Shown in pieces: positions 17,358-63,842 of a stretch of DNA of 64,000 nt. The stretch spans positions 124,001-188,000 of the forward strand of contig OZ025745.1 of the NCBI GenBank assembly GCA_964019335.1, given 5' to 3'. The DNA comes from Diplonema japonicum. Its lineage: Eukaryota; Protista; Euglenozoa: Diplonemea. The position numbers and the translations under genes were made by a program. Under the pieces are notes generated by a model that ran no database searches, was not told the DNA's origin, and saw nothing but the letters and a program-made list of their open reading frames with translations. Positions within the stretch are counted from its first letter, which is position 1, and every line of letters begins with the position of its first letter.

Positions 17358-17701
17358 CCCCTCCCCTCCTCTCCTTTTTTTTGTTGAAATGGTGGGTCTG
17401 ACTGTTGGGGGGGGGGGGGGGGAGAGAAATAAAAAAGGAGAAAAAAATAGAAAAAGAAGAAAAAAAAAGAGAAAGAGAGAACCCCCTCAACTTTTTTTTT
17501 TTGAAAAAAACAAGGGGAAAAACGGAAAAAGGGTATTCCCACTTGAGGACCATCCTTTAAAAAAAAGAAGAAACGAAGGGGGGGGGGGGGGGGAGAAGTC
17601 TCTGAACAAGGAGGGGAAAGGGGCTATGCGGTGCATGTAAAAAAAAAAAAAAAACTATTCTTTTAAGGTATGCGTTTTTGCGCTCACCGGCCGCGCTGCG
17701 C

Positions 17702-20700
17702 TTAGTCCCCGTTGTCCCCGTTCTGGGGGCTCTGGCGGGTTCCTACTGCGGTGGTCATGCTGCGGGGCAGCCTTGTCGGTGTCTGCGACAGGTACCTGTC
17801 CCGCAAGCCTTCGATGCTGCTCATGGTTCGTTCCGGGAGTACTGGCCTCCTGTCATACCCGTGTGTGGTCGGTCCTCCGATACAGCGTAGGGAGTTGACG
17901 CGCTCCACTCGCGCCGCTGGGAACGCTACCCCTCTGCCATCAGCGTGGTACAGGTCCTGGACTCGTCTCAGCACATACCGTAGCCTCCTTGCCTTGACGC
18001 CCAGGTCCTCCACCTTGCCCACTTCCCCGCCGTCGTCCAGCGGCAGCTCCATCTCCCGCTCGAAGTCGAGGGCCAGCTCTAACGTCGTCACCGCCGTGTG
18101 CCGACCAGGCGCGTCATCCCACAGCAGGCCTCCCAACCACCTCAGCACCGGCCTCAGCAGCTTGTCCATCACCGTTCCTGACGCCCCCAGCCTTCGTAGT
18201 TCAGATACCGCCGGCGTCGGGTGCGCCCTCCCCGTCACGACCGCCCGCCACGGGTAAGCTTGTGTCTGCAGTGCGCGGTTCGCTTCCACCGCTGCATCCC
18301 TCCGCGTGACTACCTCCAGCAGGTACTTCTGCACCAGTAAGGCCCTTGGCTTGTCTTGGCAGCCTCTGGGCACCACCCCATGGAGCCTCGTCGCCTTCGG
18401 CATAGCTGCCGGGTCCAGGTTCGCGTACTCCACCTTGCTCTGCACCGCGACACCCGGCTCGCATCGCCAGAGGGCGTGCTCCAGCACCTCCGTGTAGCTG
18501 CCGAACCGTTCCTCACACACGTCGCAGAGGTGCTGCAGCGGGTTGTTCGGTTCCTGCGCCACGCCCCGCGCTCCCGGGTAGACCGCAAACACCGCTCCTG
18601 CAATCAGCCTCCTCAGTCGGTACGCCGCCACTGGGTTGCCCGAGAGTGACCTCCACCACACGTTCGTGTCCGGGTCGGCTCCCTCCGGCATGCCGTCGTA
18701 GGAGTCCCTCCCTTCTGCTAGCTCGGCTGCCGTCATGGCCCTCGCCACCCGCCGGATCTCGTGCTTGCGCTCGCGTTCCGGCATGGCACCCAGCCCCACC
18801 ACGAAATTCCAGCCTTTCCCGATCGCCGGCAGCCATCTTCTCATCAGGGTCCCCACTGGCCCCAGGGCTTCAATATCGCACTCCCGGTACAGGGCGGCAC
18901 ACCTCCCCATCCGGTCCCACAGCTCCGTATCCGACCCGCCTACCTTCACCACTGTGCACAGCAGTCGGTAAAGTGTCACCACCAGCGGGTCCGTCGTGTG
19001 CCCTGGCAGCAAGACGTTCGCAACAGCACACGGCGAGCGCATCTTGAACTTCGGTCCCCAGAGGCACGTCGCAACACTCGCTCGGATTGTACCCGCATCC
19101 ATTTTCGAGGGGGGTGCATAGGCAACACCGTAGAGGCAGGAGGGGAGAATGGAGCTGGTGAGGATCCTCGCCTTCTGTGTGAACCCCAGCGGCATGGCGG
19201 CCAGTCTCCCGCAAGCGCGTCCCATCGCCTCAAGGGGCTTCGCCCTGTGCTCGCCGTCCATACATACCCGGACTCCCAGGACGTTGATCTCCTTTTTGGC
19301 CGTGAGCACCTCACGTCCGCACTTCACCGTTCCGTGTTCTGCCGTTGTGAACAGGTCTGTCTTCCTCAGGTTGAGGTTCATCCCTGTCAGCAGAGAGAAC
19401 TCGCACACCCCCGCTGCCGCCTTCTCCAGGGCGCTGAGCAGAGCTGCTATCAAGTAGACGTCGTCCGCGTATGACAGGGAATCAGCGCCGGGCACCTCCG
19501 CCATGATGGCCTTCACCATCACCCCTACCAGCGCGTTCACCATCACCACCGAGATCGGGCACCCCTGCAGGATGCCGTTCGACGTAGCAAATTCGTCACC
19601 CACCCCTGTCGGGTATTTGAACCTCCGTCTGAGGGATTCGTACATCGTCTCCAGAGGGCGCAGTATGTTCTGATGCAGTCCCAGGTCCCCCATTAGCCCG
19701 AGCGCCACTTCCCGCGGGATTCGGTCGAAGCACTTGACAAAGTCTAGCGCGAGCCCGTGCATCGGCGTTCCCGATAGCAGAGCTTCTTCGAGCTGCGTCG
19801 TCAGTTCCAGCAGTAGCGTGTCCGTACCCCTCCTCGACCTAAACCCATGTTGTGACGCGTCCGCCCACGACTCCTGCCAGACCAAGATGCGTCTCATCCT
19901 CGTTGTCGCCCACAGCCTGTACACGGCGCTGGTGACGGTGATCGGGCGGTGGTCCAACGGGGCTCTGCCCTCGCCTTTCGGGATCAGAGAGACAAGCGCT
20001 GTCAATAGCGCCTCCGGCCACTTGCCGGTCTCCTCGACGATGTTGAAGAGCTGCGCCCACCTCTCGAGCAGCGCGTCAGGTATAGCCTTCAGTTCCGTGA
20101 TCCTCCAGCCGTCGACGCCTGGGGTGCCCCTCGCAGGTCTGCTGTTTAACACCTCCCTGAGGTCGCCCCCCGTGATCGGCTCCAGTTCCATGGGGTGTTT
20201 ATCGATATACCCGCCATACCTCTCTTTGAAAGCAGCGTAGGAAGGTCGGTCACTTTTGTCCGGGTACAGGTGGAAGACGGAGGCCCATGCCCCCCTCATC
20301 AGCGCGTCTATCTCCCCCAGATCTACCGTCAGCCTGCCGTCCTCCTTCGCGACTGCCAATGTGTGAACATCCTTGTCACCTCTAACGTAAGCTACGATCC
20401 TCCGCCTGTCGTCACGGAAATCAGCTGCCACCCGTTTCCTATAACTTGCCTCGTTCTCCAGGCGTTGCCGCATCACCGTGTCTCTGTCAGCCTGCTCCGC
20501 CGCAGCCTCCAGCTCCCGCAGTCCCACCAGCGCAGCCCCCAGGCTAGCGCCCCGTAGCAGGTCCTTGTCCGGCACGACCCCAAGGTGCATCTTCTCGGCC
20601 AGCTTAACGATGTTCCGCCACGTCCCGTGCAGCATCGCTGGCAGCGTCCCCGGCCCACCACGCAGCAGTGCCTCGTTCAGCCCCGTCCTGAGCGCCACGA

Positions 20701-21823
20701 TTTTCCTCCTGAGGCTGCCGTGCATCGTCTGGCCTCGTGCGGCAGCTCCCCCTGACGTCCCCGTCGACTTCGCTGCTACCATCTTCTCCGTCAGCTCTCG
20801 CGGCTCTCCTCTGCCTACGTACGACCTCACCTCCGTCACTCCGGCTGAGCTCAGCATATAGCGTTCGGTAGCGCAGCTCAGCAAGGCGTAGAGGCCCCCC
20901 ACGTCCCTGGCGTCAACTGCTTGGTGGATTGCGTCGTCGCCGGCAAGCCCTTGGTCAAGATCAGCGTCGGGCGTCACCGCTCCCACCGGTAGCTCCTTCG
21001 GGAGGAAGAAACGTTTCGTCCGCTTCTTGAGCGTCGGCGTGAAGAGCTCAACGGACAGACACAGGTGCTCCCCGGTCCGCACCCTCTTGTGTGTCCAGAA
21101 GCGTTTCAGCGCTCCGGCAGCCACCGCGTTGGCCAGGACGAAGTCTATCCGCGTCTTCGTCTCCGTCCCGGGTCGTTCGAAGGTGTGGTCCGGTTCCCGT
21201 CCGTCCTTCTCGGCCTGAAGCGCCCCGACGTCGACCCAGTCGTTTTCCACCGCGTGTTTCAGCGTCGCTGACCCGGAAACGTCCGTGTTCAGATCCCCTA
21301 AGACCAGGATCGGCACCTCCCCGAGTTTAGCCCTCAGTTCAACGAGCAGCGAGTGTAGGAGTCGTTCCCTGTCAGCCTTCCCGTAGTGGCCGGCGCTGCA
21401 GTACACCGTGATGACGTGGACCCATAGATCGCGGCCATCCACATTTATCATAGTGTGCAGCCACCTGTTCGGCTGCACTGTGATCCCCGATACTGGAGCC
21501 ACGATGGCCGGCCTGCCTTTCTTCGTCAGCACAGCGACGCCCCCCCTTTGCCCAAGGTTTGGATTGAGTACCCCTGCCCTGTCCGGCGTGCCATCCTGAG
21601 CGCGACCCCACAGGGGGTGATACCCGCCTTCATCAACAGCTTGCGACAGTTGGCGTTGACCGTGCTCAGTGAGTTTGGTCTCCTGCAGGCAGATCACCTC
21701 ATCCTGCGTTGCTAGGACCTGCGGGAGCTTGTTGTGCAGGGACCCGACATTCACCGATGTGATCCGGAGCACGTCATCGAGCAGAGGTGGGCCACTAGCG
21801 CTTCCTCCACTCATCCCTGCCAC
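17702..21823 (-). CDS. LINE ORF2: apurinic-like endonuclease + reverse transcriptase + C-terminal Cys/His finger
   Basis: APE motifs SVNVGSL, LQET, GDLN, RIDFVL; RT motifs PGVDGW, RPIT, QHGFR, LDFVKCFD, GILQGCPIS, YADD (19460-19471); CDVC...H...C. First ATG at 21814; in frame with ORF1. Confidence 0.95.
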   Translation of the reverse strand: MAGMSGGSASGPPLLDDVLRITSVNVGSLHNKLPQVLATQDEVICLQETKLTEHGQRQLSQAVDEGGYHPLWGRAQDGTPDRAGVLNPNLGQRGGVAVLTKKGRPAIVAPVSGITVQPNRWLHTMINVDGRDLWVHVITVYCSAGHYGKADRERLLHSLLVELRAKLGEVPILVLGDLNTDVSGSATLKHAVENDWVDVGALQAEKDGREPDHTFERPGTETKTRIDFVLANAVAAGALKRFWTHKRVRTGEHLCLSVELFTPTLKKRTKRFFLPKELPVGAVTPDADLDQGLAGDDAIHQAVDARDVGGLYALLSCATERYMLSSAGVTEVRSYVGRGEPRELTEKMVAAKSTGTSGGAAARGQTMHGSLRRKIVALRTGLNEALLRGGPGTLPAMLHGTWRNIVKLAEKMHLGVVPDKDLLRGASLGAALVGLRELEAAAEQADRDTVMRQRLENEASYRKRVAADFRDDRRRIVAYVRGDKDVHTLAVAKEDGRLTVDLGEIDALMRGAWASVFHLYPDKSDRPSYAAFKERYGGYIDKHPMELEPITGGDLREVLNSRPARGTPGVDGWRITELKAIPDALLERWAQLFNIVEETGKWPEALLTALVSLIPKGEGRAPLDHRPITVTSAVYRLWATTRMRRILVWQESWADASQHGFRSRRGTDTLLLELTTQLEEALLSGTPMHGLALDFVKCFDRIPREVALGLMGDLGLHQNILRPLETMYESLRRRFKYPTGVGDEFATSNGILQGCPISVVMVNALVGVMVKAIMAEVPGADSLSYADDVYLIAALLSALEKAAAGVCEFSLLTGMNLNLRKTDLFTTAEHGTVKCGREVLTAKKEINVLGVRVCMDGEHRAKPLEAMGRACGRLAAMPLGFTQKARILTSSILPSCLYGVAYAPPSKMDAGTIRASVATCLWGPKFKMRSPCAVANVLLPGHTTDPLVVTLYRLLCTVVKVGGSDTELWDRMGRCAALYRECDIEALGPVGTLMRRWLPAIGKGWNFVVGLGAMPERERKHEIRRVARAMTAAELAEGRDSYDGMPEGADPDTNVWWRSLSGNPVAAYRLRRLIAGAVFAVYPGARGVAQEPNNPLQHLCDVCEERFGSYTEVLEHALWRCEPGVAVQSKVEYANLDPAAMPKATRLHGVVPRGCQDKPRALLVQKYLLEVVTRRDAAVEANRALQTQAYPWRAVVTGRAHPTPAVSELRRLGASGTVMDKLLRPVLRWLGGLLWDDAPGRHTAVTTLELALDFEREMELPLDDGGEVGKVEDLGVKARRLRYVLRRVQDLYHADGRGVAFPAARVERVNSLRCIGGPTTHGYDRRPVLPERTMSSIEGLRDRYLSQTPTRLPRSMTTAVGTRQSPQNGDNGD

Positions 21824-21841
21824 AAGCTGTAATTGCTATTG
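21824..21841 (-). promoter_or_regulatory. Stop-codon readthrough signal CAA TAG CAA TTA CAG (UAG-CARYYA, TMV type)
   Basis: Minus strand reads CAA CAA TAG CAA TTA CAG CTT GTG GCA GGG ATG, with ORF1 and ORF2 in the same frame. Confidence 0.8.
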
Positions 21842-24127
21842 TTGTTGTTGTTGCACCGGCCCTTGGGGCAGCAGTAGCGGGGTGGCCGGGTGCTGTGGGT
21901 CGACCTGCATCTGTCCCGTTGGTGTGCTAGCGGTGGATCTCGTGCCGGACTTCGAGACCTTCCCGCCCTTTTCCTCACCTCCTGCCGTCCTCTTCCGACT
22001 AGCACTGCTCGTCAACGCCACCGCCGCCAACTCGGCAAGCTGTTGTTCCACGTCCATCAAACGCATTTGCGTGCTCTCCTGCGCCTTCTGCATCCGAGTG
22101 ATCTTTGCCAGGGCCTCTCGTAGTGCCTGCGCCATCGCCTGCTGGTCCGCCTGCCTCCTCTCCTGCTCGAGTCGAAGCTTCGCCATCGTCTCCTCGTGTC
22201 GGCGGTCCTTTTCGGCGTACTCGGCCTCCTTGGGCTGCCACCACGAGTGGAACGATTGCTCGGCTCCCTCACTCCGCGTCGGTCGCTTGGCAGGTCGAGG
22301 TTGTGCGGCGGGCCGCAGGGGTGGGAAGTCGCTCGTCTTGTTCTTGGTCGCAGGTGGAGGGGGAGGCTTATGTGCTGGCTTCTTTGCCCCACCCTTGCTC
22401 CCCCACGTGGAGTGCTTCAGGAGGTCTCCTTCCGCACCGTGCGGCCGGATCAGCCACTGCTCGTCGCCGCTCTCGAACATGAGGCCTGGTGGATCAGCCT
22501 CCGACGCTACCAGCCATGTGCAGGTTTTTCTGCCACTCGCCAGTACGCGCACCGCTTGTGCTGCCCACCCGATCGCGCGCAGCCTCTGCTCCACCACCAG
22601 CCCCGGGACCTGCGTTCCCATCCCCTTGACCGTGAAGGGGGCCCCCTTGATCGGCACCGGACGGCGGTCCTTCACCTTCTTCGCGGTCCTGTTGTGGAGG
22701 AAGGCCACCATTTCTTCTAGTCGTTCTGCTTTCACGCGGATCCCGTACTCTCCCGTGCCCTTGCTCCATGCCACCCCCAGCCCGTCTGCCTGCTTTGCGA
22801 GGAGAGCGGCGTCAGTCGCCGAGGCGCCTTCGATCCACAGAACGGGAAATTTGCTCGTCGATTGGTGTGGGGGACGTACATAGACTCCACCGGTCCCACT
22901 GTGTCGGTACAGGGTCTCCAGGTCCGCTCGGGCAACTACCATGCACAGCTCGGCGCAGCCGTCCCTCTTCGATCCCGTCCTCGGCTCGACCCGCGCCGTG
23001 CACTTGCTCGCGGCCCAGCGAACGAGGTCCCTCCTTGCGTCGTGGTAGTCCTTCTTGGTCCTCTCCACCAAGTAGACCTCGGCAGCACAGCTCTCGACCG
23101 CGGGGACTACCACCGTCTTCTTGACCTGCTTCAGGGGTGCGCCGCCCTTCGCCGTCACCCACAGCCTGCGCACACACCTGCCCTTGCCGCCGTCGGTCGC
23201 CAGCACCACCTGCTCCAGTACTCCCGGCATCGTGGGGAGTTTGGCCCTGGACACCAAGGTGGGTCCTTCCTTGTCGTCTGCGTCCATCAGCCACAGGGAC
23301 GCCACCTTTTCCATACCTGCAGGGACGAGCAGGACCGATCTGTTCCTGCCCACCTGCGGCGTCCAGTCGCCGGAGAATGCCTCCCAGCCGTCACTCACCA
23401 GCACCGCGTCGTCTTTCGTCGTTGCCTCGTTGTCACCGTCCTCGGCGTCCTTCGTTTCCTTAGCCTTTCGGGCTGCTGCCGCTCTCCTCTTCGCGCTCTC
23501 GCTCAGGAAGGGCATGGGCACCTTCGGGTTGTTGTAGGTGCCTGCTGCCGGGAGCGTTGTGCCCTCACGCACCGACAGCGCCACGTAATGGGCGGCAGCG
23601 AACCCCAGGTATATGGTGCTCTCTACCGCGTTGCGCGAGGGGAAGGAGGTGCACAACAGCTCCCCGTCCTTCACCTGGTAGCAGGCCAGGTGGCGCCGGC
23701 ACACCACGCTGAGCGCGAGGAGCTGCAGGATGTCCCCCCACGCTCCGTCCTTCACTGCTTGCACATATTCCCCGTAGCGCTCGGGGGCATACAGCAGTGC
23801 ACTGTTGTCGGTTGATGCCAGGTGGCTAGCCACCAGCTCCCTCAAGGCCGATCCAGCAGAGGTGCCCTGATGGATCGCTACTGATGTCGCCTCGTAGAGG
23901 CAGTCCCCCTCCGTCTTGGAGAAGTCTCTGATCGAGAACCCTTCTCCCAGCTTCGCCTGAAGCTCCGCCTTCGCCTTGCCCACCTCGCTTCCCGTTCCCG
24001 TCCCGCGGCCGGAGCCTTCGCCGCTACCACCACCCCCCATGTGGCAGCGTTGCCCGGGGTTCAACCTCGAGGAGGTCGCTCCCACCGCGCTGGACGTCGA
24101 TGATAGTGTTGGTGTTGATGTTGCCAT
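21836..24127 (-). CDS. LINE ORF1 with N-terminal OTU-like cysteine protease domain and C-terminal coiled coil
   Basis: EGDCLYEA (Cys 23900-23902) ... LRELVASHL ... YVQAVKDGAWGDILQLLALS ... IYLGFAAAHYVAL (His 23588-23590) follows the OTU signature. Confidence 0.85.
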   Translation of the reverse strand: MATSTPTLSSTSSAVGATSSRLNPGQRCHMGGGGSGEGSGRGTGTGSEVGKAKAELQAKLGEGFSIRDFSKTEGDCLYEATSVAIHQGTSAGSALRELVASHLASTDNSALLYAPERYGEYVQAVKDGAWGDILQLLALSVVCRRHLACYQVKDGELLCTSFPSRNAVESTIYLGFAAAHYVALSVREGTTLPAAGTYNNPKVPMPFLSESAKRRAAAARKAKETKDAEDGDNEATTKDDAVLVSDGWEAFSGDWTPQVGRNRSVLLVPAGMEKVASLWLMDADDKEGPTLVSRAKLPTMPGVLEQVVLATDGGKGRCVRRLWVTAKGGAPLKQVKKTVVVPAVESCAAEVYLVERTKKDYHDARRDLVRWAASKCTARVEPRTGSKRDGCAELCMVVARADLETLYRHSGTGGVYVRPPHQSTSKFPVLWIEGASATDAALLAKQADGLGVAWSKGTGEYGIRVKAERLEEMVAFLHNRTAKKVKDRRPVPIKGAPFTVKGMGTQVPGLVVEQRLRAIGWAAQAVRVLASGRKTCTWLVASEADPPGLMFESGDEQWLIRPHGAEGDLLKHSTWGSKGGAKKPAHKPPPPPATKNKTSDFPPLRPAAQPRPAKRPTRSEGAEQSFHSWWQPKEAEYAEKDRRHEETMAKLRLEQERRQADQQAMAQALREALAKITRMQKAQESTQMRLMDVEQQLAELAAVALTSSASRKRTAGGEEKGGKVSKSGTRSTASTPTGQMQVDPQHPATPLLLPQGPVQQQQQ

Positions 24128-24158
24128 AATGTTTCTTTTAACCCAAATTCAGAACCCC
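24005..24158 (-). ncRNA. HDV-like self-cleaving ribozyme at the LINE 5' end, overlapping ORF1
   Basis: P1 GGGGTTC/GAACCCC; P2 GCGGT-G-GGAGC/GCTCC-G-GCCGC; P3 ACC/GGT; L3 TCCTCGA; GG-GCAA; P4 CGCTGCCAC/GTGGTAGCG; J4/2 GCGAA with catalytic-C equivalent at 24020. Confidence 0.88.
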
Positions 24159-25008
24159 TGAAAAAAAAAAAAAAAAAATGGCAGTGTTCAAAACTCCATT
24201 TTTTAATTTCCCCTTCCGGCCTCTCAGTGCAGGAAAAAGGACCAAAAGAAAAGGAGAAAAACTAACACAAGAAAAAAAAGGGGTAAAGTGCAATAATGTG
24301 AAGACCGGACAGGGGTGGTGGTGGCAGTGGAGGGAAAGGTACAAGAAACTTTACGTACCCCTTCCTTTTCTATTTCTTTTTTTTTTTATTTTGTGAACTC
24401 TCCCCTCCTTTGTTTATATTCTTCTCTTTCTATTTTTTTTTTTCTTCGATTTTCAAAACAAACAAGATAGAGTGTCAGGGCACGAAAAGAATGTTGGGAA
24501 CAAAAAAAGAAGAGAGAGAAAAAAAATGGGGCAAACCGGAGCACAGCCATTTTAAGTTTCCTCTCCCCCCCACTTTTTTTTCTTTGTTCCTCTTTGGCTT
24601 TCGCCTACAAAAAACAGGGGCCCAAAAGAAGGGCTTAACTGTTATTATTTCTTCTTTTCCGTCCAGAAAGATCTCCTGAAGAAAATAATTTAAAAAAAAA
24701 AAAATTCAAATTAACATGCAAGCCCCTAAGACGAAAGCCGCACGCCCTAAAAAAGGGAAGGGTAGGTCAATACTAGGTATCTCAGTTTCGGTCAAATCTC
24801 GCGACTCCGTCAGGTGCTGCCTCTTACGGCGAGAGGCACCCCTCAATAGCTCCTACCAGCGTCCCACAGGTTGGAGAGTACTTTTCCCGACCAAAAAAAA
24901 AATATATATATGTGTTAAAGGAAGTCTTTGTGAGACGCCCCCTTGTTCTCATCTTCTACCTGCAAAAAAGAAAGAAAAAGAACCTCGGTGATTCATGTAC
25001 TAGACTAG

Positions 25009-38130: not shown

Positions 38131-39405
38131 CTATTTCACCACGGCCCACCCTGGAACGGTGGGCTCTTTCTCGGGTGTCAGCGATAGATACTTCCATAGT
38201 TCGGGGGACAGTGATGCGTCGGGGTCCGTTGACAGAAGTGAAAGCCGCTGTCCTTTCGCCATGGAAACGATTTGCCCGTTCTCGAGGCACACCTTGTGTT
38301 TCTTAGGCTGGAGGTGCCAGTGGGTACGAAGCTGAGGAGATTCAATCACAGCACGAACCCCGACGTTGTCGGTCCAGTCAGGAAGCAGGGACAACACTGT
38401 CAACGAACACCCAGCTTCAGCTGCCTTCTTCAAAGACTCAATCACAACAGGAAGATCTCTGTCCATGATCGCCTCAACGTAAGGCGGGTTGCAAAAGAGG
38501 AGACCTGGGAGGGTAGGGGTAAGGGTGTCGGTGAACTTTTTCAAATCGAAGTCTTGAACCCTTCCAAGCGAACCGTCAGCGACAGGGATCATGGTGAGGA
38601 AGGGATGCGGCGAACTACGTCTGTTCCCCAAGTGGGAGTACATTTCTAACGAAAGACAGGTTGCAGGATCGCGTACCCATGGTTCGCACATTACAGCATC
38701 ATGGAATTCCTGAGAGAGCCCCATGGCCTGGCCTGTAACAAACATCGACCCGTAAACAAGAGAGTGCAGGACCAGCTGTTTCGGACAGGTTTCAGCAAGG
38801 TGCCTCAGCCGATGTGTATTCAGAGGTTTCAAGAGTATTGCTTCACCGTTATCGGCTTCCCACAGTAGGACATCGCCTTTGAACTCCGAAGCTCGTTTGT
38901 GCTGTGTTGCCTTGTCGATGGTGTCCTGTATCTCTGGCCACAGGGTTTTGGGGTTTTTTAGAAGGTCAGAACCGGTCATTTCTTTTTTGATGGAGAATGT
39001 GTAGTTGTTGGGGATGTTGACAGGGTTGTGGTCCAGTGCGTCTTGGTAGTGGCGGAGAATGGTTTTCCATTGGGAAGCTTTCAAACCGGTTTTCTCCCAC
39101 TGTTTTGAGAATTCTCCCAGTTTTTCGAATTCGAGAAGCTCCAGGAACGGTGCGGCGAGTATCGCTCCACTGTCACCTTGCATCACCTCCAGCCAAACCT
39201 GTTCTAATATCTTCCTGGCTTTCTTTATCTGGTAGGTTTCCATGTCCCTCGCCATTCCCTTTGTGACTTTGAGGTACGCCTCGCGCATTGCTATCCCGGT
39301 TTGAAGCATCTCATCTGACAGATCTTTCACGCAGGTTTGATCCACGCACTTTCTTACCAGCTCTAATGTGTCTATCTTTCTTTTCTTTGCCTCTTGGTCT
39401 GCCAT
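38131..39405 (-). CDS. PCIF1/CAPAM-like N6-adenine methyltransferase domain protein
   Basis: GSLGRVQDF...LFCNPPYVEAIMD...LLPDW resembles the PCIF1 catalytic region (GSxGxFFDF...NPPF). Confidence 0.55.
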   Translation of the reverse strand: MADQEAKKRKIDTLELVRKCVDQTCVKDLSDEMLQTGIAMREAYLKVTKGMARDMETYQIKKARKILEQVWLEVMQGDSGAILAAPFLELLEFEKLGEFSKQWEKTGLKASQWKTILRHYQDALDHNPVNIPNNYTFSIKKEMTGSDLLKNPKTLWPEIQDTIDKATQHKRASEFKGDVLLWEADNGEAILLKPLNTHRLRHLAETCPKQLVLHSLVYGSMFVTGQAMGLSQEFHDAVMCEPWVRDPATCLSLEMYSHLGNRRSSPHPFLTMIPVADGSLGRVQDFDLKKFTDTLTPTLPGLLFCNPPYVEAIMDRDLPVVIESLKKAAEAGCSLTVLSLLPDWTDNVGVRAVIESPQLRTHWHLQPKKHKVCLENGQIVSMAKGQRLSLLSTDPDASLSPELWKYLSLTPEKEPTVPGWAVVK

Positions 39406-39859
39406 ATTTCTTTTTTCGTTTGGTGGTTTTCCTTTTTTTGGGGAGATTTTTCTTTTTTTGTTGCTTCAATAAGCTGGATCGAATAAATATGGGGGGAAGG
39501 GAGGGGGCAGAATATGAAAAAAAGAAAAAAAAAAAAGGCATTCCTGCGAGAGATGAGTAAAAAAAAAAAAAAAAAATGGCGACGAAGGAGGAATGGAAAA
39601 AAAAAAAAGGGAACGAAAAAAAAATGGGAAAAAAAAAAAACATGGTATGGGAGGGGATCGTTAATAAAGGGTAAGATGGTATTTTTTCCTCCTCTCCCCC
39701 CCGGAAATAAAAAAAAAACAAAAAAAAAAAAACAGCACTGAAAAAAAAAAAACCTCCCCCCTCCCCCCCAACATTTCTTTTGTTGATACATGATAAACAC
39801 ACTGCTTTTCTTTTTTTTTTCTCTCTTCTTTCGTTTTTTTTTTTTTTTTTTTCCCCTCT

Positions 39860-42800
39860 CTATTCATCCTCTCTCACGTCATCACCGCATTCAGAACAGG
39901 TCTCCCAGTCCTGATATTCGACCTTAGAAAGCTGCGTAATGTACTTGTTAAGAGAACCCTGGTTCTTTGCAGGAACATGCGATAGCAGAAGGGTTAAAGT
40001 GAGACTCAAACGGTCTTCCGTGTGGGTAGTGACACGTTCGCCAGCAATGAGGGAGGTGGCAAGACCGCAGAGCTCCTTGATGAGCTGCATGACCTCCTGT
40101 GTGCCCACCTCGTTGATGGCCCCAAACTCTATAAACGACCTACAAGCACGCACTGTGGCGAGCTGTTGGTCAGGGTCTGTCATCCCTGGTAAAACACTGC
40201 AGACATCAGAAACGAATTTTACGTAGTCTTGGTGGTACATTCCCGGCTTGCCTACACCTCTGCTTAACAGGCCGTTCCAGGCGCTCATTCCCAATACTAT
40301 CATAGCACCGCCTCTGTTTACTGCTCCTGTTGCCTTGTCGACCACCTCACGCGTCACATGTTCGTCCAACAATGGTGCCAGCATGCCCACAGCCTTCCCC
40401 ACTGCGGCCGCGTGCGATACGTTGGCCACACGCTCCCACATTGGCACCACGATGTCCTGGCACTTCGTCGCGATCATCTTCCCGATCACAGCGTCAGGCC
40501 TGCTCCACAAACACAATGTGAGACCTCTTAACAATGCTGTTTGAACAGCTGCATGCGCACCCTTTGTCTCAAGAACAAGCGAGTTGAGTGTCGGGTCCAG
40601 CCTTGGCTCTTGGAAATTGCATAGTACCCAAACCGATCGCAGTGCCGACCGCCTCACATCGCAGTCCGGGTTGGCAAGGTTCTTAGGGAAGGTGTTCTGC
40701 AACATGGAGATGAACTGCTTGGCGGAGCTCCCCACACGTCTGATGCATCCCGAGATGCATGTCAACATCGAGCATTTGGTGCTGGCGGGCATGACCTCTG
40801 AAAGCTTACGGATCATAGGCCCGATGATATCACCCACGCACGCCTTGATAGTCTCTGTGGAGACCATGTCAATGATGTCGAGGATGCCGTTGGCAGCCAC
40901 CTCACGCTGGTCGTTGTCGCCAGTCTGGAGGGGCTTGGTGTAGAAAGCAAGGATGGTGGACAGGCCAAGGGATTTCTTGTCCTCAGAGTTGCCGAGGTCC
41001 AAGGCTGGAAGCTTTCCACCACTTCCAAGTGTACCCATGGCAGCAGTCTGCAGAGCACCGTGAACAGTGCCCATGTAGTCGATAAAGGTGCCAGCAGCCT
41101 CCAGTGCGGCGCTCATCTGCTTCATGGCATTGAGGGCGCACTTCTGCACGTCAACCTGAGAGTCCCCGTACAATCTGATGATGTTCTGGATGAACGTGGT
41201 GTAGAAGTCAGTCAGGTCGAGCTGTGTGTGCGTGTGTGCGTTTTTTTTTCTCCTTTGTTGCGCATACCGATTCGCAAGACACCAAAGCGCCCACCAGACC
41301 CACACCACCACGCCTCTCCTCCACGGCACTGCTTTGAACAAACTGTAAAGGGTTATGTTGTGTTTTAAGAAAACAACGATACCATTCTGATCTCTCCCAT
41401 GATAGCGTACATGTGTTCCGTCTCCGCTTGCGAGACAACAGCCTGTGGTGTGTGTGCGTGTGTGGTGCTCTTATCACTTGTCATACCTCTACCGCGTAGA
41501 CGACATCATCCAGGTAGTCCAGGTCCACCTGCCCAAGAGTGTTCGACAGCACAGGGATGAGCTCGATGATGTGTGGTTGCAGGTTCTCTCCTGTTTTTTT
41601 TTTCTTTTTTTTTTTTTTACTCTTTGTACATACCAGCAAGTTCGGCAACCTTGCCCAACCCGATGGAGAGGGTGCTCGATAGCACCTCGCATTCTGTGAA
41701 GGTGGGGATGAGCTGCTGCAGGACGGCCCTGGGACGCATCTTAACCATCTCAAGGGTGCCCGCCATGGCCTGTGTGCGGTGTTGGGTGTCATGGCTGCAT
41801 ACCTGCTCGTCGTTCGACACGATGGCGTCGATGAGGTTCTGCATGAGGTTCTCGATGGCCCTTCCACCGAAGTTCTTGAATAGAATGTCGAAGGCAAGAC
41901 CCGCCTCTTCTCTGACCTCCGAGTCTTCATCCTTGATGGCCTTGACGATAGCAGTGGTAATGGTGTTCGAATGCGCTGCAAGCTGCGCTCTCGAGATGCA
42001 TCGCACAACCTCTTTGAACCCCAGAGTGGAGCCGAGTCTGTTCTGCACAGGGTTGCTTGCGTTGAGGCCCTCCGTGAGGACGGGCAGGATAAACGGAAGG
42101 AACCCGTCTCCCAGTCTGGAGACGAGGTCTCCCACACATCGTCCAGCGATCTCTCTGTGCTCGGGCTGTAAAAAATATAAGTGATACCACAAAAAAGCAC
42201 GCATACGCAGTCCTCGCTGATGTACTCCACAAGCTTAGGGGTGAGGAATTCCATGATTCTTCGGAGCATGGCAGGTGTGTTGTCCACGACGGCTTTCCAG
42301 ACCTGTGCACAGGGGTTTTATGTTCGTTGGAAGGCATACCTGTTTTGCCTGTCTGACGACATCCATGGTGAGGTCGACTGTGAGCATGTAGACGTTGGCC
42401 ATGAGGTCGCCCAGGACGTTGGTGCCGATGACATCCTGGAGAGATGTGATGAGGGAGTTGGTTGTCTTGTCCGATCTCATGCGGCGCAAATCGCGGAGCG
42501 TCAACGGGCCGCGCTGCGTCATCGGTTGCAGGCCGCCGTCCTCCTCGTCCTCTTCTTCCTCTTCTTCTTCGTCTTCCTCTTCCTCTTCTTCCAATTCTTC
42601 GCGCACCTCGCGTTGTTTCATAGGGCCCTTCAGGTTCTCTGTAGCGACCCTCATCAGCAAGTCGCCCAGCAGCTGCAGCGAGGACAGCCTCACCCTCCAT
42701 TCGGGGTTCGACAACCCGGTCTGCAGCGGTGGCAGCAGCTGGTCCAAGCACTTTGTACCGAACAGGTGCACGACAGTTTGACCTGCTTTCACGGCCATGT

Positions 42801-42955
42801 TCCTCACGGACTCCACGTCGTCGCTCAGCCCCACCACCACCGACGGTGTCATCTCCTTCAAGTGTGGCTGGTAAGCCTGCCCCAGCGTGTGCGGCAAGTA
42901 CACCAACACCTGCAGGAAACCTTCACGGATGTGGGACAACGGGCTAAAGTGGATG

Positions 42956-42993
<38 letters not shown>

Positions 42994-45900
42994 ATACTCG
43001 GTAGTTTTACTCTTGATGACCTGCAAGTAGTTCTCAAGCTCGGAGCTGTCGATAGCAGTGATGAGCTGGCACACACCCTGCGCCGCACCTGACCTCTCCA
43101 CGTGGGAGTTGTCGGGTTGGGTCAGCGTCTTCATGCACCAGTCGATGAGGTTGGGGAACTGCTCAATACCGAGGGACTGGACAAGGGAGCCAAGCGCCTT
43201 GGCACTGGTGGATCTGCAGTCGGGGTACTCATCAAGGAGGACCTTCTTGAGGGGCGTCATCAGCTCATCGAGGTACGGCAGGATGAGGTCGGGGTCGTTC
43301 ACGAGCAAGGCAACGCTTCCCAGGATCTGTGCAGACTTCATCTTGATCTGCGACACACGCTCGGTCAACCCTCTGCGGAGGATAGGCTCGATGACGGCAA
43401 GCGACGCAGCGTCGACGGCGTTCGTGAAGCGAGTGTACAGCAGCGCCTCCAGAGCGGCATCAAGCTCGGTGTTGGGAGAGCGGAGGGCATTCAGCAGCAC
43501 GTTAGCATGGGCGGCGATCTCGGGGTTGGTGATAACACCACCAACACGGCGCAGGGCATCGTAAGCACTCTGCTGCACCTCACGATGAGTGTCAGTCAGA
43601 GTCTCCACCAACACAGGCATCACCTGCGGCAGCGCGGCGGCAAGCTGCTGCGGAGAGCAGTACGACATCTGCCCCAACAGGTTCAAAGCGCTAACCTTTG
43701 TCCTCCAGCTCTCGGTGTCAAACGAAGCGATCAACGGCGGTAGAATCTGTCTCACACCGAAGTGCGATAGCGACTTCATCATCGCTGCCGAGCACTCTTC
43801 AGCTGCCTTTTTCACAGCGTGCTCTTTGTCACTGAAAGCACCAACCACAAGTTGGATCTGGTCGATCACGTATGGCTCGTACAGACCGTCGAGCCTTTCA
43901 CAGAATACAGCGAATGACGCCAGGGCACCCTCCTTGGCGTTGCCCTTTCCACCCAACGCATCTTCAAGGGACTCCAAGATGTTAAGATCGTGCAGCGCAG
44001 GCAGGTGGCACCCGATGATGATACCAGCCAGTGCGTGTGCATTGCAACGCCTGAAGGCGATGCCGTGGTTCCCCTTGGTGATCTTCTCCAAGCACTTGTT
44101 CACCAGCTTGGGTCTGATGTTCTTAACCGCCTTGATCTTCACGATGAGGGACATGGTCTCGCACACGGACAGGGCAATGGCCGGAGACGTCGTGTGACTG
44201 ATGTCCACCAGCTTAGTAGCGAGAGACTCAACGTGGTCTGCCTTCTCCATCTGTGTGGAGAGGGTGCCCATTACCACCACAATGGAGGCGGTGTAGGACT
44301 CCTTAATAGCAGGCGTGATGACACCTGCAGCGCCTGCGGGGCTTGCGGTCGTGGGAGGGCCGCTCTGGAAGAACTTCTGAAGAGTAGGTAGGATTGCAGC
44401 GTGGTGCTCTTTACCGTGCTGGGCGACGATCTTTCTGAAAGCAGGAAGGAATACATCGCGAACAGACTCCACGGGATCCACAAGCGCACGTTGGCAGCAG
44501 AATTTAGTAATGAGCTCAAGCGTAGGGGCCGTGTAGAGAGGAAGCAAAGCAAGGAGAGCATGAGCGGTTCCTTTCCTGAAATCCTTGGTGACGGTGGCGG
44601 GGTTGCTCAGCTGCGCATCAAACGCACGGAAGATCTGCTGGAGTGCGAGCTTTGTCATATCTTGGTACTTTTCCAAACCAGCGGCCAAGGCCGCGGAAAT
44701 CGACTCGACCACCTCCTCAGAGTCGCTGAAGAGCACCGGCACCAGCACATCGATGAAGTCCTCTTCAATGGTGAGGTCGAAGTACTTCCACGTTTCCTGC
44801 GCCTTGCGGGTAACACCTCTGTTAATGTCGCGTGTGCAACTCAACAGACGGTAACGCAGCATTGCGGGAGCGGAAGGTGTTTTTTGGTAGTTCTTCAGCG
44901 CTGCGGAAGCTGCCTCACGCACAATGGAAGAGGGCGAGATGAGCGCGTCGGTGATGGGACCCAGTTCGTCGACTGAGAGGTGCTCCGCAAGGCTTACCAG
45001 CGCAGCGATACCAGTCTGTAGGTAGGAGGTGGTGGAACTGCGGTGGTGCTTGGCATACCTTTGACAGAGTAGGCGTTCTGTCGATGATAGTGAGAAGCGA
45101 CACCGACGTCTCCGTCTTGTGCGGCAGATCAGGGAGACCGGTGTTTGTGGAGACCAAGGCAAGTGTCTGTGTTATATTTTTATTCATTCCGTTATATTGC
45201 ATACCTGCTGCTGGCAGATGATGTTGAATGTCGCTGCCTGGTTGACGTGCTCCAAGACAGTCGCCACGGTGGGGTAGATGATGGAGAAAGAAGGAGCAGG
45301 GAGCAGTCCAGAGCATGCAGCACGCAGCCTCTTCATGACGTGCTCCACGAAAGAGATGGTGCTGAAGTCCATCGGGCTCTTCCGGGTAACGTCCACGTCC
45401 TTGCGGTACAAGAGGTCACGCGTGACAACAACAAGAGTGCTTGCCATGGCTTGCAGCTCCTGCACAGGGGTGGTGAGGAAAGACCATTCGAGGATCTCCA
45501 ATGCCTTGACAAGAACAGATTTGAGAGGCACAATCCTGAGGATCTTGCACATGACAGGGATGATGGCGGGGATGTTATTGTGGGATGCATCATGGTTCTT
45601 GCTGTTCCTGATGATTTCGATGAGCGCCACCATGTACCCGGTTATGGAGTCGCGCTCTGCAGAAAGCTTCGACTTAATATCTGTCACCTTCGCGCGCATC
45701 TCGACACGCGCCTTCGCAACCTTCGGGTCCTCGATACCCTTTTCGGCGTTCTTCCGCCTAATCATCTCTCTCTCCCATTCTTCGTCTTCTTTGCTGTACA
45801 GCCCCTTCTGGCTCTTGTCTCTCTTCACGTTCTGCTCGTCCTTGGCGAAGCGAGGCACCACATCTTCGTCCTCGAGCTGCTTCTGAACGATAGCCTCGAC

Positions 45901-48618
45901 GTCTTCCTGTGTCCGTGTCTCAACGATGCGGACCTCTGAGACAGTCATCTTCGACAAGAACTCGATCTTTTCCTCGATGAGGGCCATGAGACGGGTAAAC
46001 TCTTCGTACTCCACAACGGGCTTGGGCTCTTCCCCGTCCTCCTCGACAGGTTCCACGGGCTTGGATTTTGGCTGCACCAGCACATGGCTCAACCCGTCAG
46101 TCCCAGAGTGAGCCACGAGGAATGTTAGAGCCCTTCCTGCAGCTGCTCTCACATGTTGCCTAGGGCCAGCCTCCTTAAGGGCAGAAAGCATTGACTTCAC
46201 AACGCTCTCGCGTTCATTCCACAGCATGTGGCCAGCCTTGAATGAGACGCCCATGGTGTCGGGGTTGAAGTGCACCCCAAACAGCCTCACAAACACATCG
46301 TTGAAGACAGGCGTTCGGTACCTCGCCATGTTGGGCGTGCAGCACGTGAAGTAGTTCCCGATAGGCCCGCTCACAGCAGAGTGGCCCACGGTCAGCATGA
46401 TCTCCGACAGCAGCTCGGGCGTCACGACCCCTTCATGGTTGAACATCGCGTTCACCAGCATCGCGTACACATCAGCAGCCGCAGGGTCTTCTCTCCTGTC
46501 GTCGCCACCCAGCACAGCAGTCTCCGAGATGCTCTCGGCAAGCTCCCAAAGAGGCATCCTGGGCTTCCCGAAGTTCTTGCCTTCCACGACCAGGGGATGG
46601 TTCAACCTGTCAGTTGGTGCTTTCGCCCCCGCGGCAACCTTAGGTGCAGGCTTCGCCTTTTTGCCACCGGGTTTCACAGCAGCTTTCTTCGCACCAAGCT
46701 TCCCCGCGGCCTCGGCGGCCTTTGCGGGAGGCACACCCCACAAGACAATCAGCAGCGAAGTCCAGAAGGAGTTGAGCAGCTTGCTGTCCGCTTTGATAAC
46801 AGCTTCGATGGCGGCAAAGGCCTCCTTGCGCACCTCGTGTCTGGGGTGCGTCGCAAAGAGGACCAGCCCTGTCGTGGGACCGATATCGCGGGCGGGGCTG
46901 AAGTTCGGCGGAGCACCTTTCCCGGTCATGGGGGGGAGGAACCTCTGGCAGGCCTTGATGCCTGCCAGCAGCTGCCAGTTCTCTGCGGGGCGGCGGAGGT
47001 TTTCAATGCTGAAGAGCATAGCGTCGTGCCCCAGGCAGCCCTCCTGGTACCATTTCTCAGTGGCAGGGAAGTCCACGACAGAAAGTGCCATCAAGGCGTC
47101 GACGCGGAAACCTGGTTTCTTCTCCGCCTCCTTGCACAGCTTGGCAAGTGCGGGTTGGATCTCTTTAATCTTCTTTGCGTCGACAGCCGCCACGTCGGGC
47201 AGCATGTAGAGCATTCTGTACCTGATGGTGTCGTCTTTATGCGTTGCCACGTCCTTGAGGATGGTGCTGATGTAGTCAGGGACGGTGGCGGTAAGCTTCA
47301 CACAGTCGTGGATGAGCTCTAGAGAAGCGTGAGTGACGTACGGCTTGATGGCGGGGTAGAGCACGTCCTTCACGATAGCGGTGGCGTCCGCTTTGCTCTT
47401 CTCGTCCTTGAGCATCAAGGGCACCGCACCGTTGAGGGTCAGCATGATCGCGTTCTTCTCTTCGTTGGACTTTGCGTCCTTCAGAGACGCGCACAGGCCG
47501 CTGATGACCTGCTTCTTAATCTCAAGATCCTGCACGTTCGCGAGGATGGACTCGAAGACAGCCATCGCATGCTTCTTCAGCTTGTCGTCTTTGAGACACC
47601 TGGTGGTGGGCTCAACCATCGACTTGATGCTCTGCGCATGCTTCTTGGTGTGAACGGAGTAGAAGGAGAGACACGCTGCAAAGGCAGGCAGCACAGATTC
47701 AATGGCACGCTTTGCCTCAGCAGAGATAGCTTCGAACACCGCACCGGAGGCCTTCTCCGTTTCCGGGCATGAGAGACAGCTGTTGATCTTAATGTTGCTG
47801 AGGTAGTTCCATATCTTGGTGTTGGGGGACTTGACGCTCTTGCAGATGACCTCTGAGATGAGCTGCAGGTACTTGTCGGGGAGTTTGAGCCCGTTGCCCT
47901 CCTTCAAGGAGAGGATGGCGAAGGCGGCGGGGAGAGCCTCGATGGGGTTCGGGCTGTTGTTGGCTTCCGTGAGGACGTACTGCATGACAGCGGGGAAGCC
48001 TGCGTACCACTTCGCAACCTTTTTGTAGGAGGGGAGGAAGTCGGATATAAGCTTCATTACACGTTTGAGGAGCTCTTGAACGTTGGGCTGCTGCATGACG
48101 GTGGCAGCACTCTCTTGGCGCACCTTCATCCCGTGCATGGGCAGCTCCTTGAGGAAGGCGGCTTTTTGTTCGTCAGTTTTGTATTTCTTCCCTGTGTGGG
48201 ATGTGGGGACCGAGGGGCGGGTGTAGCGAAGCGAGTCTAGGGTCTTAGGGCCTTGAGCATTGCAGATGCCTCGTAAAAACGTCTGGAGCATCGCAAGCTG
48301 CGGGGCTGTGACCTTCTCGGTTTTATCAAGTAGCCCCAGAACAACGCTGCATAGGGTGTCCGCGTTTTCGGCACGCTTTTCACCCTTTGTGACCGTTCCG
48401 CCGATCACCTCTGCGAGTTGGATCAGCCTTCTGTCTGATTTCCCGAAAGAAACGCCACCCAGTGCAGGCAGGACAACGCCGATCAGGCTTTTTGCTTCGT
48501 CCACAGAGAGTTCTCCCTCCCGTTGCCTAACCAGCTGCACAAGAGTCCCATCGATTTCCTCCAACCTCGTCTTGAAGCTGCTCGATGTCAGCGCCCCCAC
48601 GATCTTGGCGCGTTTCAT
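39860..48618 (-). CDS. GCN1: GCN1 translational activator (HEAT repeats), ~2779 aa, 11 exons
   Basis: SWRTKVSALNLLGQMSYCSPQQLAAALPQVMPVL, NPEI, ERSGAAQG, WRVRLSSLQLLGDLL. Introns 45167-45204, 45016-45058, 42944-42997, 42303-42339, 42166-42206, 41770-41802, 41591-41633, 41443-41486, 41343-41382, 41222-41267 leave an 8340-nt frame. Confidence 0.92.
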
Positions 48619-49140
48619 TTTCCTCTTTTTTTTTTTTGTCTTCTTCTTCTTCTTCTTTACTTCCCCCCTTACGTTATTCTTTTTTTTTTTTTTTTTTTTT
48701 GGCTTTTCAAAAGGAAAAATTAGCAACGATCTAAAGTAAAAAGAAGAAAAAAAAAAAAAAAACACCCCACCCGATGGCGGGGTCGCGGTTTTTTTGTTTC
48801 TTCTTCTTCTTTTTTCTTTTCTTTTTTTTTTTTTTACCAGCACATACCCTCCCTTGAGGATAATAAAACAAAAAAAAACAAAGAAAATAGAAGATGTTTC
48901 TTTTTTTTTTTTTTTTTTGGTCCTTTTTTATCACCTGATTTTAATCTGGTAAAAAAGGAAGATCTTAACCCCCTCCTTGCGTCCACGCACTGTAACAAAG
49001 TATAAAAAAAAAAAAAATTCTGATAACCGGAGAGAAAAGGTTTGTGGTAAAAAGAAAAAAGAAGAAAGGATTTACAACCGAAGGCTTGACTACGGAAACC
49101 TCTACCAAATAAGTGAAATAAAAAAATATGGGAAAAAATA

Positions 49141-62778: not shown

Positions 62779-63842
62779 ATAAAGAAAAAAATTCTTAAAG
62801 CTTTTGAAAAAGAATATAAAAAAAAAAATTCACACAGGAATTTTGTACCTCCCTGCAGTTTTTTCTTTCTCTCTCTTCTTTTATTCGTTCGCTTTTTTTT
62901 TCTCTTCCCCCCCCCCTCCCCTTCAGCGTCAAAAGAATTTATATGTTTAATTAAAACCGAATATCTTTTTCTTTTTAGAAATAGATCCTCTCAGCACCCG
63001 TTTGAATTCCCCTGAGGGGCACTGGGTAGTTCTTAGGATTTTGATACTTTTATTTTTCTTTTTTACTTTTTTTTTTCTCTTCGTTTTTCTTCGTTCTGAT
63101 TTGGAAAATCTTTTTTTTGGAAGTCTTTTTTTTTCTTTCTCCTTTGTTTCTCGAGCTTGAGGGGGTATTTTTTTTTTTTTTGTTCGCCCTGCTCTTGCGC
63201 GTACTGACTTACTTTTATGGGGAGGGGGAAGCTCGGGGGTTTTCCCCTTCCAGTTTTGTTGCTACTTCTGCCTAATTTCTTTGAAGTTCTTGTCTCACCA
63301 AATATCGGAAAGACCTCCAAAAAAAAGAAGGGGGGAAAAAAAAAAAGAAGAAAAACAATAACAACAACAAAACTACGGGGGGTTGATCAAATTACTTTTT
63401 TTTTCCTTCTTTTTTTCGCTTCTTTCCTTTTTTTTTTTTTTTTTTTTTTGAAACTTTCTTAATGAAGGTAGAACAGCCAATCACACAAGAATAGTACATG
63501 TGAATAAGAAAGAAAGAAGAAAAAAAAGGGGGAGATTTACATAGTACGGGGGGGGGGGGGGGATTAGCAACTACACCCCCCCCCAAAAAAATAACATTGC
63601 CAATAAGTCAGTCTCAGCATTCAAATCCCTTCTGCCTCCTCTTTTTGGCCACGCCTTCTCAAATTGGCATGAAAAAGACCAAAGGGTCATGCCAACCGCA
63701 AGAAGAAACAGAATAAAAAGGAAGAATGGGGAATGACAATATTTTTTTTCTTTTTTTTTTTTTTTTAAAGGATGGAGGTGCTAACTTAACCCCCGCCCCC
63801 GCTCTTTTTTTTTTTTTTTTTTTAAATAAAATATCCCCGAGA

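Follow-up and report, generated by a model that had tools for sequence, protein, structure and literature searches.

How ORF2 is produced from the bicistronic RNA of a LINE is an open question, and the cases that have been tested use reinitiation or 2A skipping. The window analysed here, 64,000 nucleotides of contig OZ025745.1 of the marine protist Diplonema japonicum, holds an intact, transcribed LINE that carries the best-studied portable readthrough signal. ORF1 and ORF2 of this element form one frame on the minus strand, from an ATG at 24127 to a TAA at 17702, and translation yielded 2142 codons with one internal stop, in agreement with the original prediction, which named no strand, of a single frame 17702-24127 with a lone internal TAG. 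The locus raises the question of whether ribosomes pass this TAG or whether the reverse transcriptase (RT) is reached in another way. The element and its parts are as follows.

17667..24132, minus strand: full-length APE-type non-LTR retrotransposon, ~6.47 kb, bounded by two target-site copies.
24133..24141, minus strand: 5' copy of the target-site duplication, 9 bp, TTAAAAGAA, the sole non-trivial word of at least 7 letters shared between the flanks.
17658..17666, minus strand: 3' copy of the target-site duplication, matching the 5' copy.
21836..24127, minus strand: ORF1, 763 aa plus TAG; transcript-derived proteins 96% and 80% identical to it end at the same place.
23588..23914, minus strand: OTU-like cysteine protease domain (Pfam OTU, E 1e-07, above cut-off) that contains Cys76 and His180.
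22676..23491, minus strand: ORF1 core in common with ORF1 of a Diplonema papillatum element (21% identity, 289 columns, pairwise E 3e-09).
17702..21835, minus strand: ORF2, 1377 codons counted from the stop (translation).
21125..21754, minus strand: APE-type endonuclease domain (Pfam Exo_endo_phos, E 2.5e-10).
19265..19981, minus strand: reverse transcriptase domain with YADD (Pfam RVT_1, E 6.1e-18).
18488..18532, minus strand: C-terminal Cys/His motif, possible zinc finger (weak Pfam E 0.08, below cut-off), its residues kept in protein P0005.

The GC content of the element is 62-64%, versus 33-58% in the rest of the window, and no LTR was present among the window repeats listed. Only 5 nt precede the ORF1 ATG. 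The element has no poly(A) tail, and neither poly(A) nor a short tandem repeat was found within the 35 nt from the ORF2 stop to the target duplication; the type of 3' tail varies among LINE clades. Summed contig depth, a figure that is no copy number, climbed steeply toward the 3' end of the element in 4/4 runs, as 5' truncation would give. The nearest proteins came from the Diplonema japonicum EukProt transcriptome (species label confirmed for P0001 and P0012-P0015), with ORF1 matches at 96% and 80% identity, and ORF2 of other families was 55-59% identical over the RT region. The OTU domain also matched OTUD1 in the PDB (E 0.0007), and its predicted catalytic Cys and His were invariant in 7/7 aligned OTU domains. 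A structure model of the ORF1 core reached a pLDDT of 46, too low to be of use, and gave no fold match at E <= 0.001; Atlas leads of 0.81-0.85 provide a weak lead to an RRM-like fold. Among viral contigs, 0/35 pattern matches were relatives, and 80 metagenome loci (of 252 confirmed; 597 matched) were weak endonuclease-only matches at 23-41% identity and were left out.

Read on the minus strand, the junction consists of five CAA codons, TAG (21838-21836), the codons CAA TTA CAG and then CTT GTG GCA GGG, and ATG at 21814.

21839..21853, minus strand: CAA run, five Gln codons, which forms the 5' CAA context; 3 and 4 CAA in the other variants.
21836..21838, minus strand: the single in-frame TAG (translation), present in 3/3 variants.
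21827..21835, minus strand: CAA TTA CAG, the type I (TMV) readthrough hexamer and the next TMV codon, invariant in 3/3 variants.
21815..21835, minus strand: in-frame spacer of seven codons, Q-L-Q-L-V/S-A-G, of the same length in 3/3 variants; Leu and Gly vary synonymously only.
21812..21814, minus strand: first ATG of ORF2, Met-Ser-Gly-Gly; sister families start MSGG or MGG at the same place.

The stop has the type I (TMV) sequence, UAG then CAR YYA, and is followed by 1377 in-frame codons that hold the APE and RT domains. Sixteen letters of the stop region are identical to the TMV site, so the identification of CAA-TAG-CAA-TTA as the TMV readthrough context held. In plants, mammals and yeast UAG CAR YYA alone directs readthrough, without downstream structure (PMC13517186, PMC2194720, PMC4615788). 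The predicted RNA fold of the 149 nt past the TAG was no better than shuffles (z = -1.26; 20/200 shuffles equally good), and since the portable signal needs no structure we read the site as one of probable type I readthrough. A stem-loop downstream of the TAG was considered and rejected, because the fold is non-significant; one partner base also differs in a second subfamily, at the loose end of a contig.

Given the base composition of the element, CARYYA is expected after a stop with p = 0.0013. The first CAA after the TAG could derive from the CAA run, and once it is granted the chance rises to p = 0.038. Among the in-frame codon pairs of the element, CARYYA occurs once in 2141, at the stop alone, and TTA is the rarest Leu codon (5/227 Leu codons). 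None of 23 long host frames in the window is followed by CARYYA. Window TAG triplets are followed by CARYYA in 1/371 cases on the minus strand and 1/438 on the plus strand; the plus-strand case (63565-63573) lies in low-GC sequence without a long ORF and is likely due to chance.

Conservation of the stop was judged from sequencing-run contigs and transcript proteins. Junction-crossing contigs identical or near-identical to the window copy were obtained from runs X1, X2 and X10. Subfamily B, whose ORF1 is ~80% identical to that of the window copy, had contigs in 3/4 runs examined; its junction, read by hand from tables of contig differences and gaps, consists of three CAA codons, TAG CAA TTA CAG, Leu as TTG, Ser, Ala, Gly and ATG. 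The subfamily B transcript protein P0013 terminates after three Gln. A frameshifted transcript isoform, P0015, crosses the same junction in another frame, and its end peptide parallels the window junction read in that shifted frame, with equal motif residues and an equal distance to the next stop; at the level of sequence, P0015 is an independent check of the subfamily B junction. Variant C is known from one 599-nt contig (depth 3.8) of the fourth run, which bears another organism label, and has four CAA followed by the same motif. Synonymous changes account for 7/8 of its changed codons, among them Leu +4 and Gly +7 of the spacer, in a tally that covers 9 of 11 differences. Leu +4 is encoded three ways across three variants and, to judge from these substitutions, the spacer behaves as coding sequence. 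Two contigs of 31-32 nt that cover the motif, each differing at 4 positions, were excluded from the variant count.

TAG CAA TTA CAG and the 21-nt spacer were retained in 3/3 distinguishable variants (window copy, subfamily B and variant C). Conservation of TAGCARYYA in diverged copies had been proposed as a check of the original prediction and was borne out; in place of the CAG or CAA that a private mutation would leave in most copies, TAG was found in 3/3. Variable sites were 0/12 in the motif and 8/21 in adjacent sequence (Fisher p = 0.015, with flanks picked after looking). Divergence near the junction is low, and at the variable rate of the region (~11%) twelve unchanged sites are expected with p = 0.25. 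Editing of the stop in RNA was rejected in view of transcript-derived proteins that still end at the TAG. Family members were also present, at low depth, in runs labelled with other organisms, X11 (subfamily B), X12 (a distinct variant) and X13-X17, and may stem there from a related species, a mixed culture or transfer. The ORF1 proteins P0012 and P0013 have their first ~140 residues in common, after which P0012 follows the window copy and P0013 diverges, a pattern of either subfamily recombination or an assembly chimera.

We estimate a probability of about 0.68 that programmed type I readthrough at the TAG sets the ratio of ORF1 to RT, an assessment made from sequence. Most ribosomes would stop at the TAG and release ORF1p, and a minority would read through it, inserting most likely Gln or Tyr, and yield an ORF1-endonuclease-RT fusion as the working source of RT. 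With most ribosomes stopping, a single bicistronic RNA would give ORF1 and RT in a high ratio, fixed by the leak. Transcript assemblies contain the unspliced ORF1-ORF2 junction. The leak of diplonemid ribosomes at this TAG, and its rate, are what we infer here; the literature found holds no measured readthrough in any euglenozoan. For the LTR element Tca2, which has a suggestive in-frame stop, local context gave no readthrough in yeast (PMC2194720). As to the original claim of programmed readthrough, the stop kept in 3/3 variants and the coding-like spacer are in its favour; against it, reinitiation or trans-splicing is a real rival, with Met 21814 kept in two sister families.

Termination at the TAG followed by a restart at ATG 21814, 21 nt on, would make the TMV-like context a by-product of the CAA run; this is the main rival reading, and we regard it as rather unlikely. 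The in-frame ATG lies 8 codons on in 3/3 variants, and reinitiation is a known LINE route: human L1 and silkworm SART1, which likewise carry a bicistronic ORF1 and APE-RT, differ from the present element in using termination-reinitiation via a 63-nt spacer or an overlapping UAAUG (PMC5972666). No stop-start overlap exists at the LINE junction, where the ATG is kept 21 nt past the TAG. In an RT tree of 76 sequences with >=270 aligned residues (midpoint root), two sister families group with the element at 0.99 support. Both have a complete N-terminus, 55-58% RT identity to the element, and a start (MSGG in one, MGG in the other) at the position of ATG 21814, with the Met 10-16 residues ahead of the endonuclease. 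These starts, known from protein, were chosen by the ORF caller as the earliest Met to follow a stop, which weakens them as evidence. Nevertheless, Met-(Ser)-Gly-Gly in 2/2 complete sister families is unneeded by readthrough and, as far as these sequences indicate, is an argument against readthrough alone; it upholds the original remark that the ATG 8 codons on leaves reinitiation possible. Reinitiation, for its part, needs no common frame, no TTA CAG and no restriction of the Leu and Gly changes of the spacer to synonymous ones, and after a long upstream ORF it has been called improbable (PMC3894237). Readthrough and initiation at ATG 21814 could act together.

The CAG of CAA TTA CAG (21827..21835, minus strand) is a possible splice acceptor too. 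If TTACAG served as a 3' acceptor, the RT could come from a spliced-leader ORF2-only mRNA, with its ATG 12 nt on, or from an mRNA freed of the TAG by removal of a short cis-intron; we consider either improbable. Diplonemids trans-splice essentially all of their mRNAs and have gene clusters (PMC10161547). Host ORFs with Pfam hits in the window are encoded on the minus strand and interrupted by short GT-AG introns, an arrangement like that of diplonemid gene clusters; these cis-introns end in CAG or TAG, some without a pyrimidine tract, and the kept Met would fit an ORF2-only mRNA. A strong candidate acceptor is nevertheless found elsewhere, upstream of ORF1.

24158..24182, minus strand: host polypyrimidine tract and CAG; pyrimidines make up 80% of the 30 nt that precede the AG.

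Before the junction AG the corresponding value is 40%. Neither a joint nor a loose end was seen at the site in 4/4 runs (contigs show presence, not absence), and transcript isoforms hold the unspliced junction. In subfamily B the closest GT donor reads GC, and splicing leaves the CAA TTA before the CAG unexplained.

It is hardly credible that the TAG arose by private nonsense mutation within the poly-Gln stretch of an element with one ORF, or that the host reads it as Gln. The TAG does lie within a CAA run and TAG=Gln codes occur in other protists, but CAA to TAG needs two changes, the TAG is kept in 3/3 variants and transcript proteins end there, so the private-mutation reading fails. Of 23 long host frames examined, some of them exon ends, 4 terminate at TAG, and what follows looks non-coding, so that the host uses TAG as a stop, with no change of code.

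Relatives of the element were compared with respect to what precedes the endonuclease. An N-terminal NPGP or HPGP motif occurred in 17/88 relatives and the strict 2A motif D(V/I)ExNPGP in 5; before the endonuclease in ORF2 of the window element neither NPGP nor the 2A motif was found. D(V/I)ExNPGP and DVHPNPGP lie ahead of the endonuclease in P0020, P0036, P0055, P0056, P0083 and others, from diplonemids and metagenomes, and P0055 and P0083 have two 2A-like motifs each. An OTU domain stands directly before APE-RT in one ORF in 5/16 Pfam-scanned relatives (P0018, P0027, P0058, P0075 and P0077, one match being just under cut-off), so an OTU...APE-RT polypeptide exists in the clade. Because 2A-like and OTU-fused types are interspersed on the RT tree, the device just before the endonuclease appears to be exchanged frequently, in keeping with a need for RT to be limited or released. 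With leaky stop, 2A-like motifs and OTU all occurring at one position, the clade lends itself naturally to a comparison of such devices.

None of 86 RT relatives showed an unspliced natural ORF1-ORF2 fusion, a point against the readthrough reading. The apparent D. papillatum fusions P0030, P0052 and P0042 were rejected as evidence: in models of one family the break falls on a shared residue but leads into unlike downstream parts, indicating predicted splicing over the junction, and the fusions are probably gene-model artefacts. In the NCBI D. papillatum models P0030, P0052, P0090 and P0093, LINE ORF1 is spliced either to ORF2 or to a host gene, so that the true junction is concealed.

A broader version of the readthrough reading would have TMV-type readthrough make an OTU-ORF1-endonuclease-RT polyprotein, whose own OTU cuts after L-x-L-x-A-G past the stop and frees the RT, with leaky stop, 2A and protease being swapped in the clade for the same job. 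We regard this larger scheme as quite unlikely. OTU enzymes cut the ubiquitin tail pattern, which the spacer L-Q-L-V/S-A-G resembles. By analogy, such a LINE would hypothetically express its replicase like a positive-strand RNA virus, its L-x-L-x-A-G being ubiquitin-tail-like and placed like the alphavirus nsP3/nsP4 site. Alphaviruses have a leaky stop ~7 codons before a Gly/Ala-containing site, in VEEV with three CAA before the stop (PMC13517186). Their stop differs in being UGA, type II with a stem-loop, and cleavage is established there and a hypothesis in the LINE. The likeness of the spacer to the ubiquitin tail, together with alphavirus cleavage seven codons past a leaky stop, makes self-cleavage a testable idea; a Gly-Gly or Ala-Gly site ahead of the endonuclease could be made out clearly in only 2/6 relatives with an OTU or OTU-like lead, so the relatives leave OTU cleavage unsupported. 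A search for literature joining OTU, cysteine protease, ORF1 and non-LTR retrotransposon returned no paper, within a scope that excluded subscription journals, Repbase and bioRxiv supplements.

Type I readthrough itself has its closest parallel in TMV p126/p183, which shares with the LINE the 16 letters round the stop, the upstream CAA and the lack of a significant downstream fold. The TMV polymerase sits in the readthrough part, as the RT would in the LINE. Unlike TMV, the LINE is a nuclear non-LTR retrotransposon of a euglenozoan, known from sequence alone, and has an in-frame Met after the stop. In Paramecium UGA is the only stop, so a stop there, including that of the Group 3 elements, cannot be of the UAG type. 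Non-LTR Group 3 of Paramecium tetraurelia consists of APE-RT LINEs whose ORF1 and ORF2 share a frame interrupted by one stop, and for which read-through was proposed from consensus sequences; it differs in host lineage, and the relevant text of that paper reports no OTU and does not discuss the stop context (PMC5405496). In SIRE1, Tca2 and MuLV the structural frame is separated from the enzymatic or envelope frame by a stop that sets a ratio (PMC2194720, PMC3441728). These are LTR elements or retroviruses, unlike the present element, and MuLV requires a pseudoknot. The SIRE1 stop has CARYYA. APE-type LINEs with 2A (L1Tc, Ingi and others) have recoding just upstream of the endonuclease, as is probable for our element, whereas the window element is without NPGP in ORF2 and has a full ORF1; readthrough is not among the LINE routes listed in the pertinent section of PMC3894237, which gives the two products as not processed.

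No UAG CARYYA in a non-LTR element was present in the literature searched, with the same scope as above. LINE readthrough inferred from sequence was known before from Paramecium Group 3 (PMC5405496). If the reading proves true, readthrough would join the tested LINE expression routes, euglenozoan ribosomes would be seen to respond to the TMV signal, and the replicase would be an ORF1-ORF2 fusion or a product cleaved from it.

The host surroundings of the insertion bear on how the element RNA may arise. The tract at 24158..24182 is likely a spliced-leader acceptor able to cap element RNA, a function suggested by euglenozoan biology (PMC10161547). The LINE copy lies 26 nt below this strong polypyrimidine-AG and in the same orientation as the host gene cluster, so host transcription and trans-splicing could supply capped element RNA, and the family may depend on polycistronic transcription by the host instead of a promoter of its own. 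Insertion took place at a TT/AAAA-like site 17 nt below the host polypyrimidine-AG, and the copy has 5 nt ahead of its ATG (window 24133-24182). Elsewhere in the window, a GCN1-like HEAT-repeat gene (41481-48927) has GT-AG introns of ~30-45 nt, some without a pyrimidine tract. An ORF at 38131-39465 has a weak match, below cut-off, to the PCIF1 (cap m6Am methyltransferase) family and is of possible interest for spliced-leader cap chemistry.
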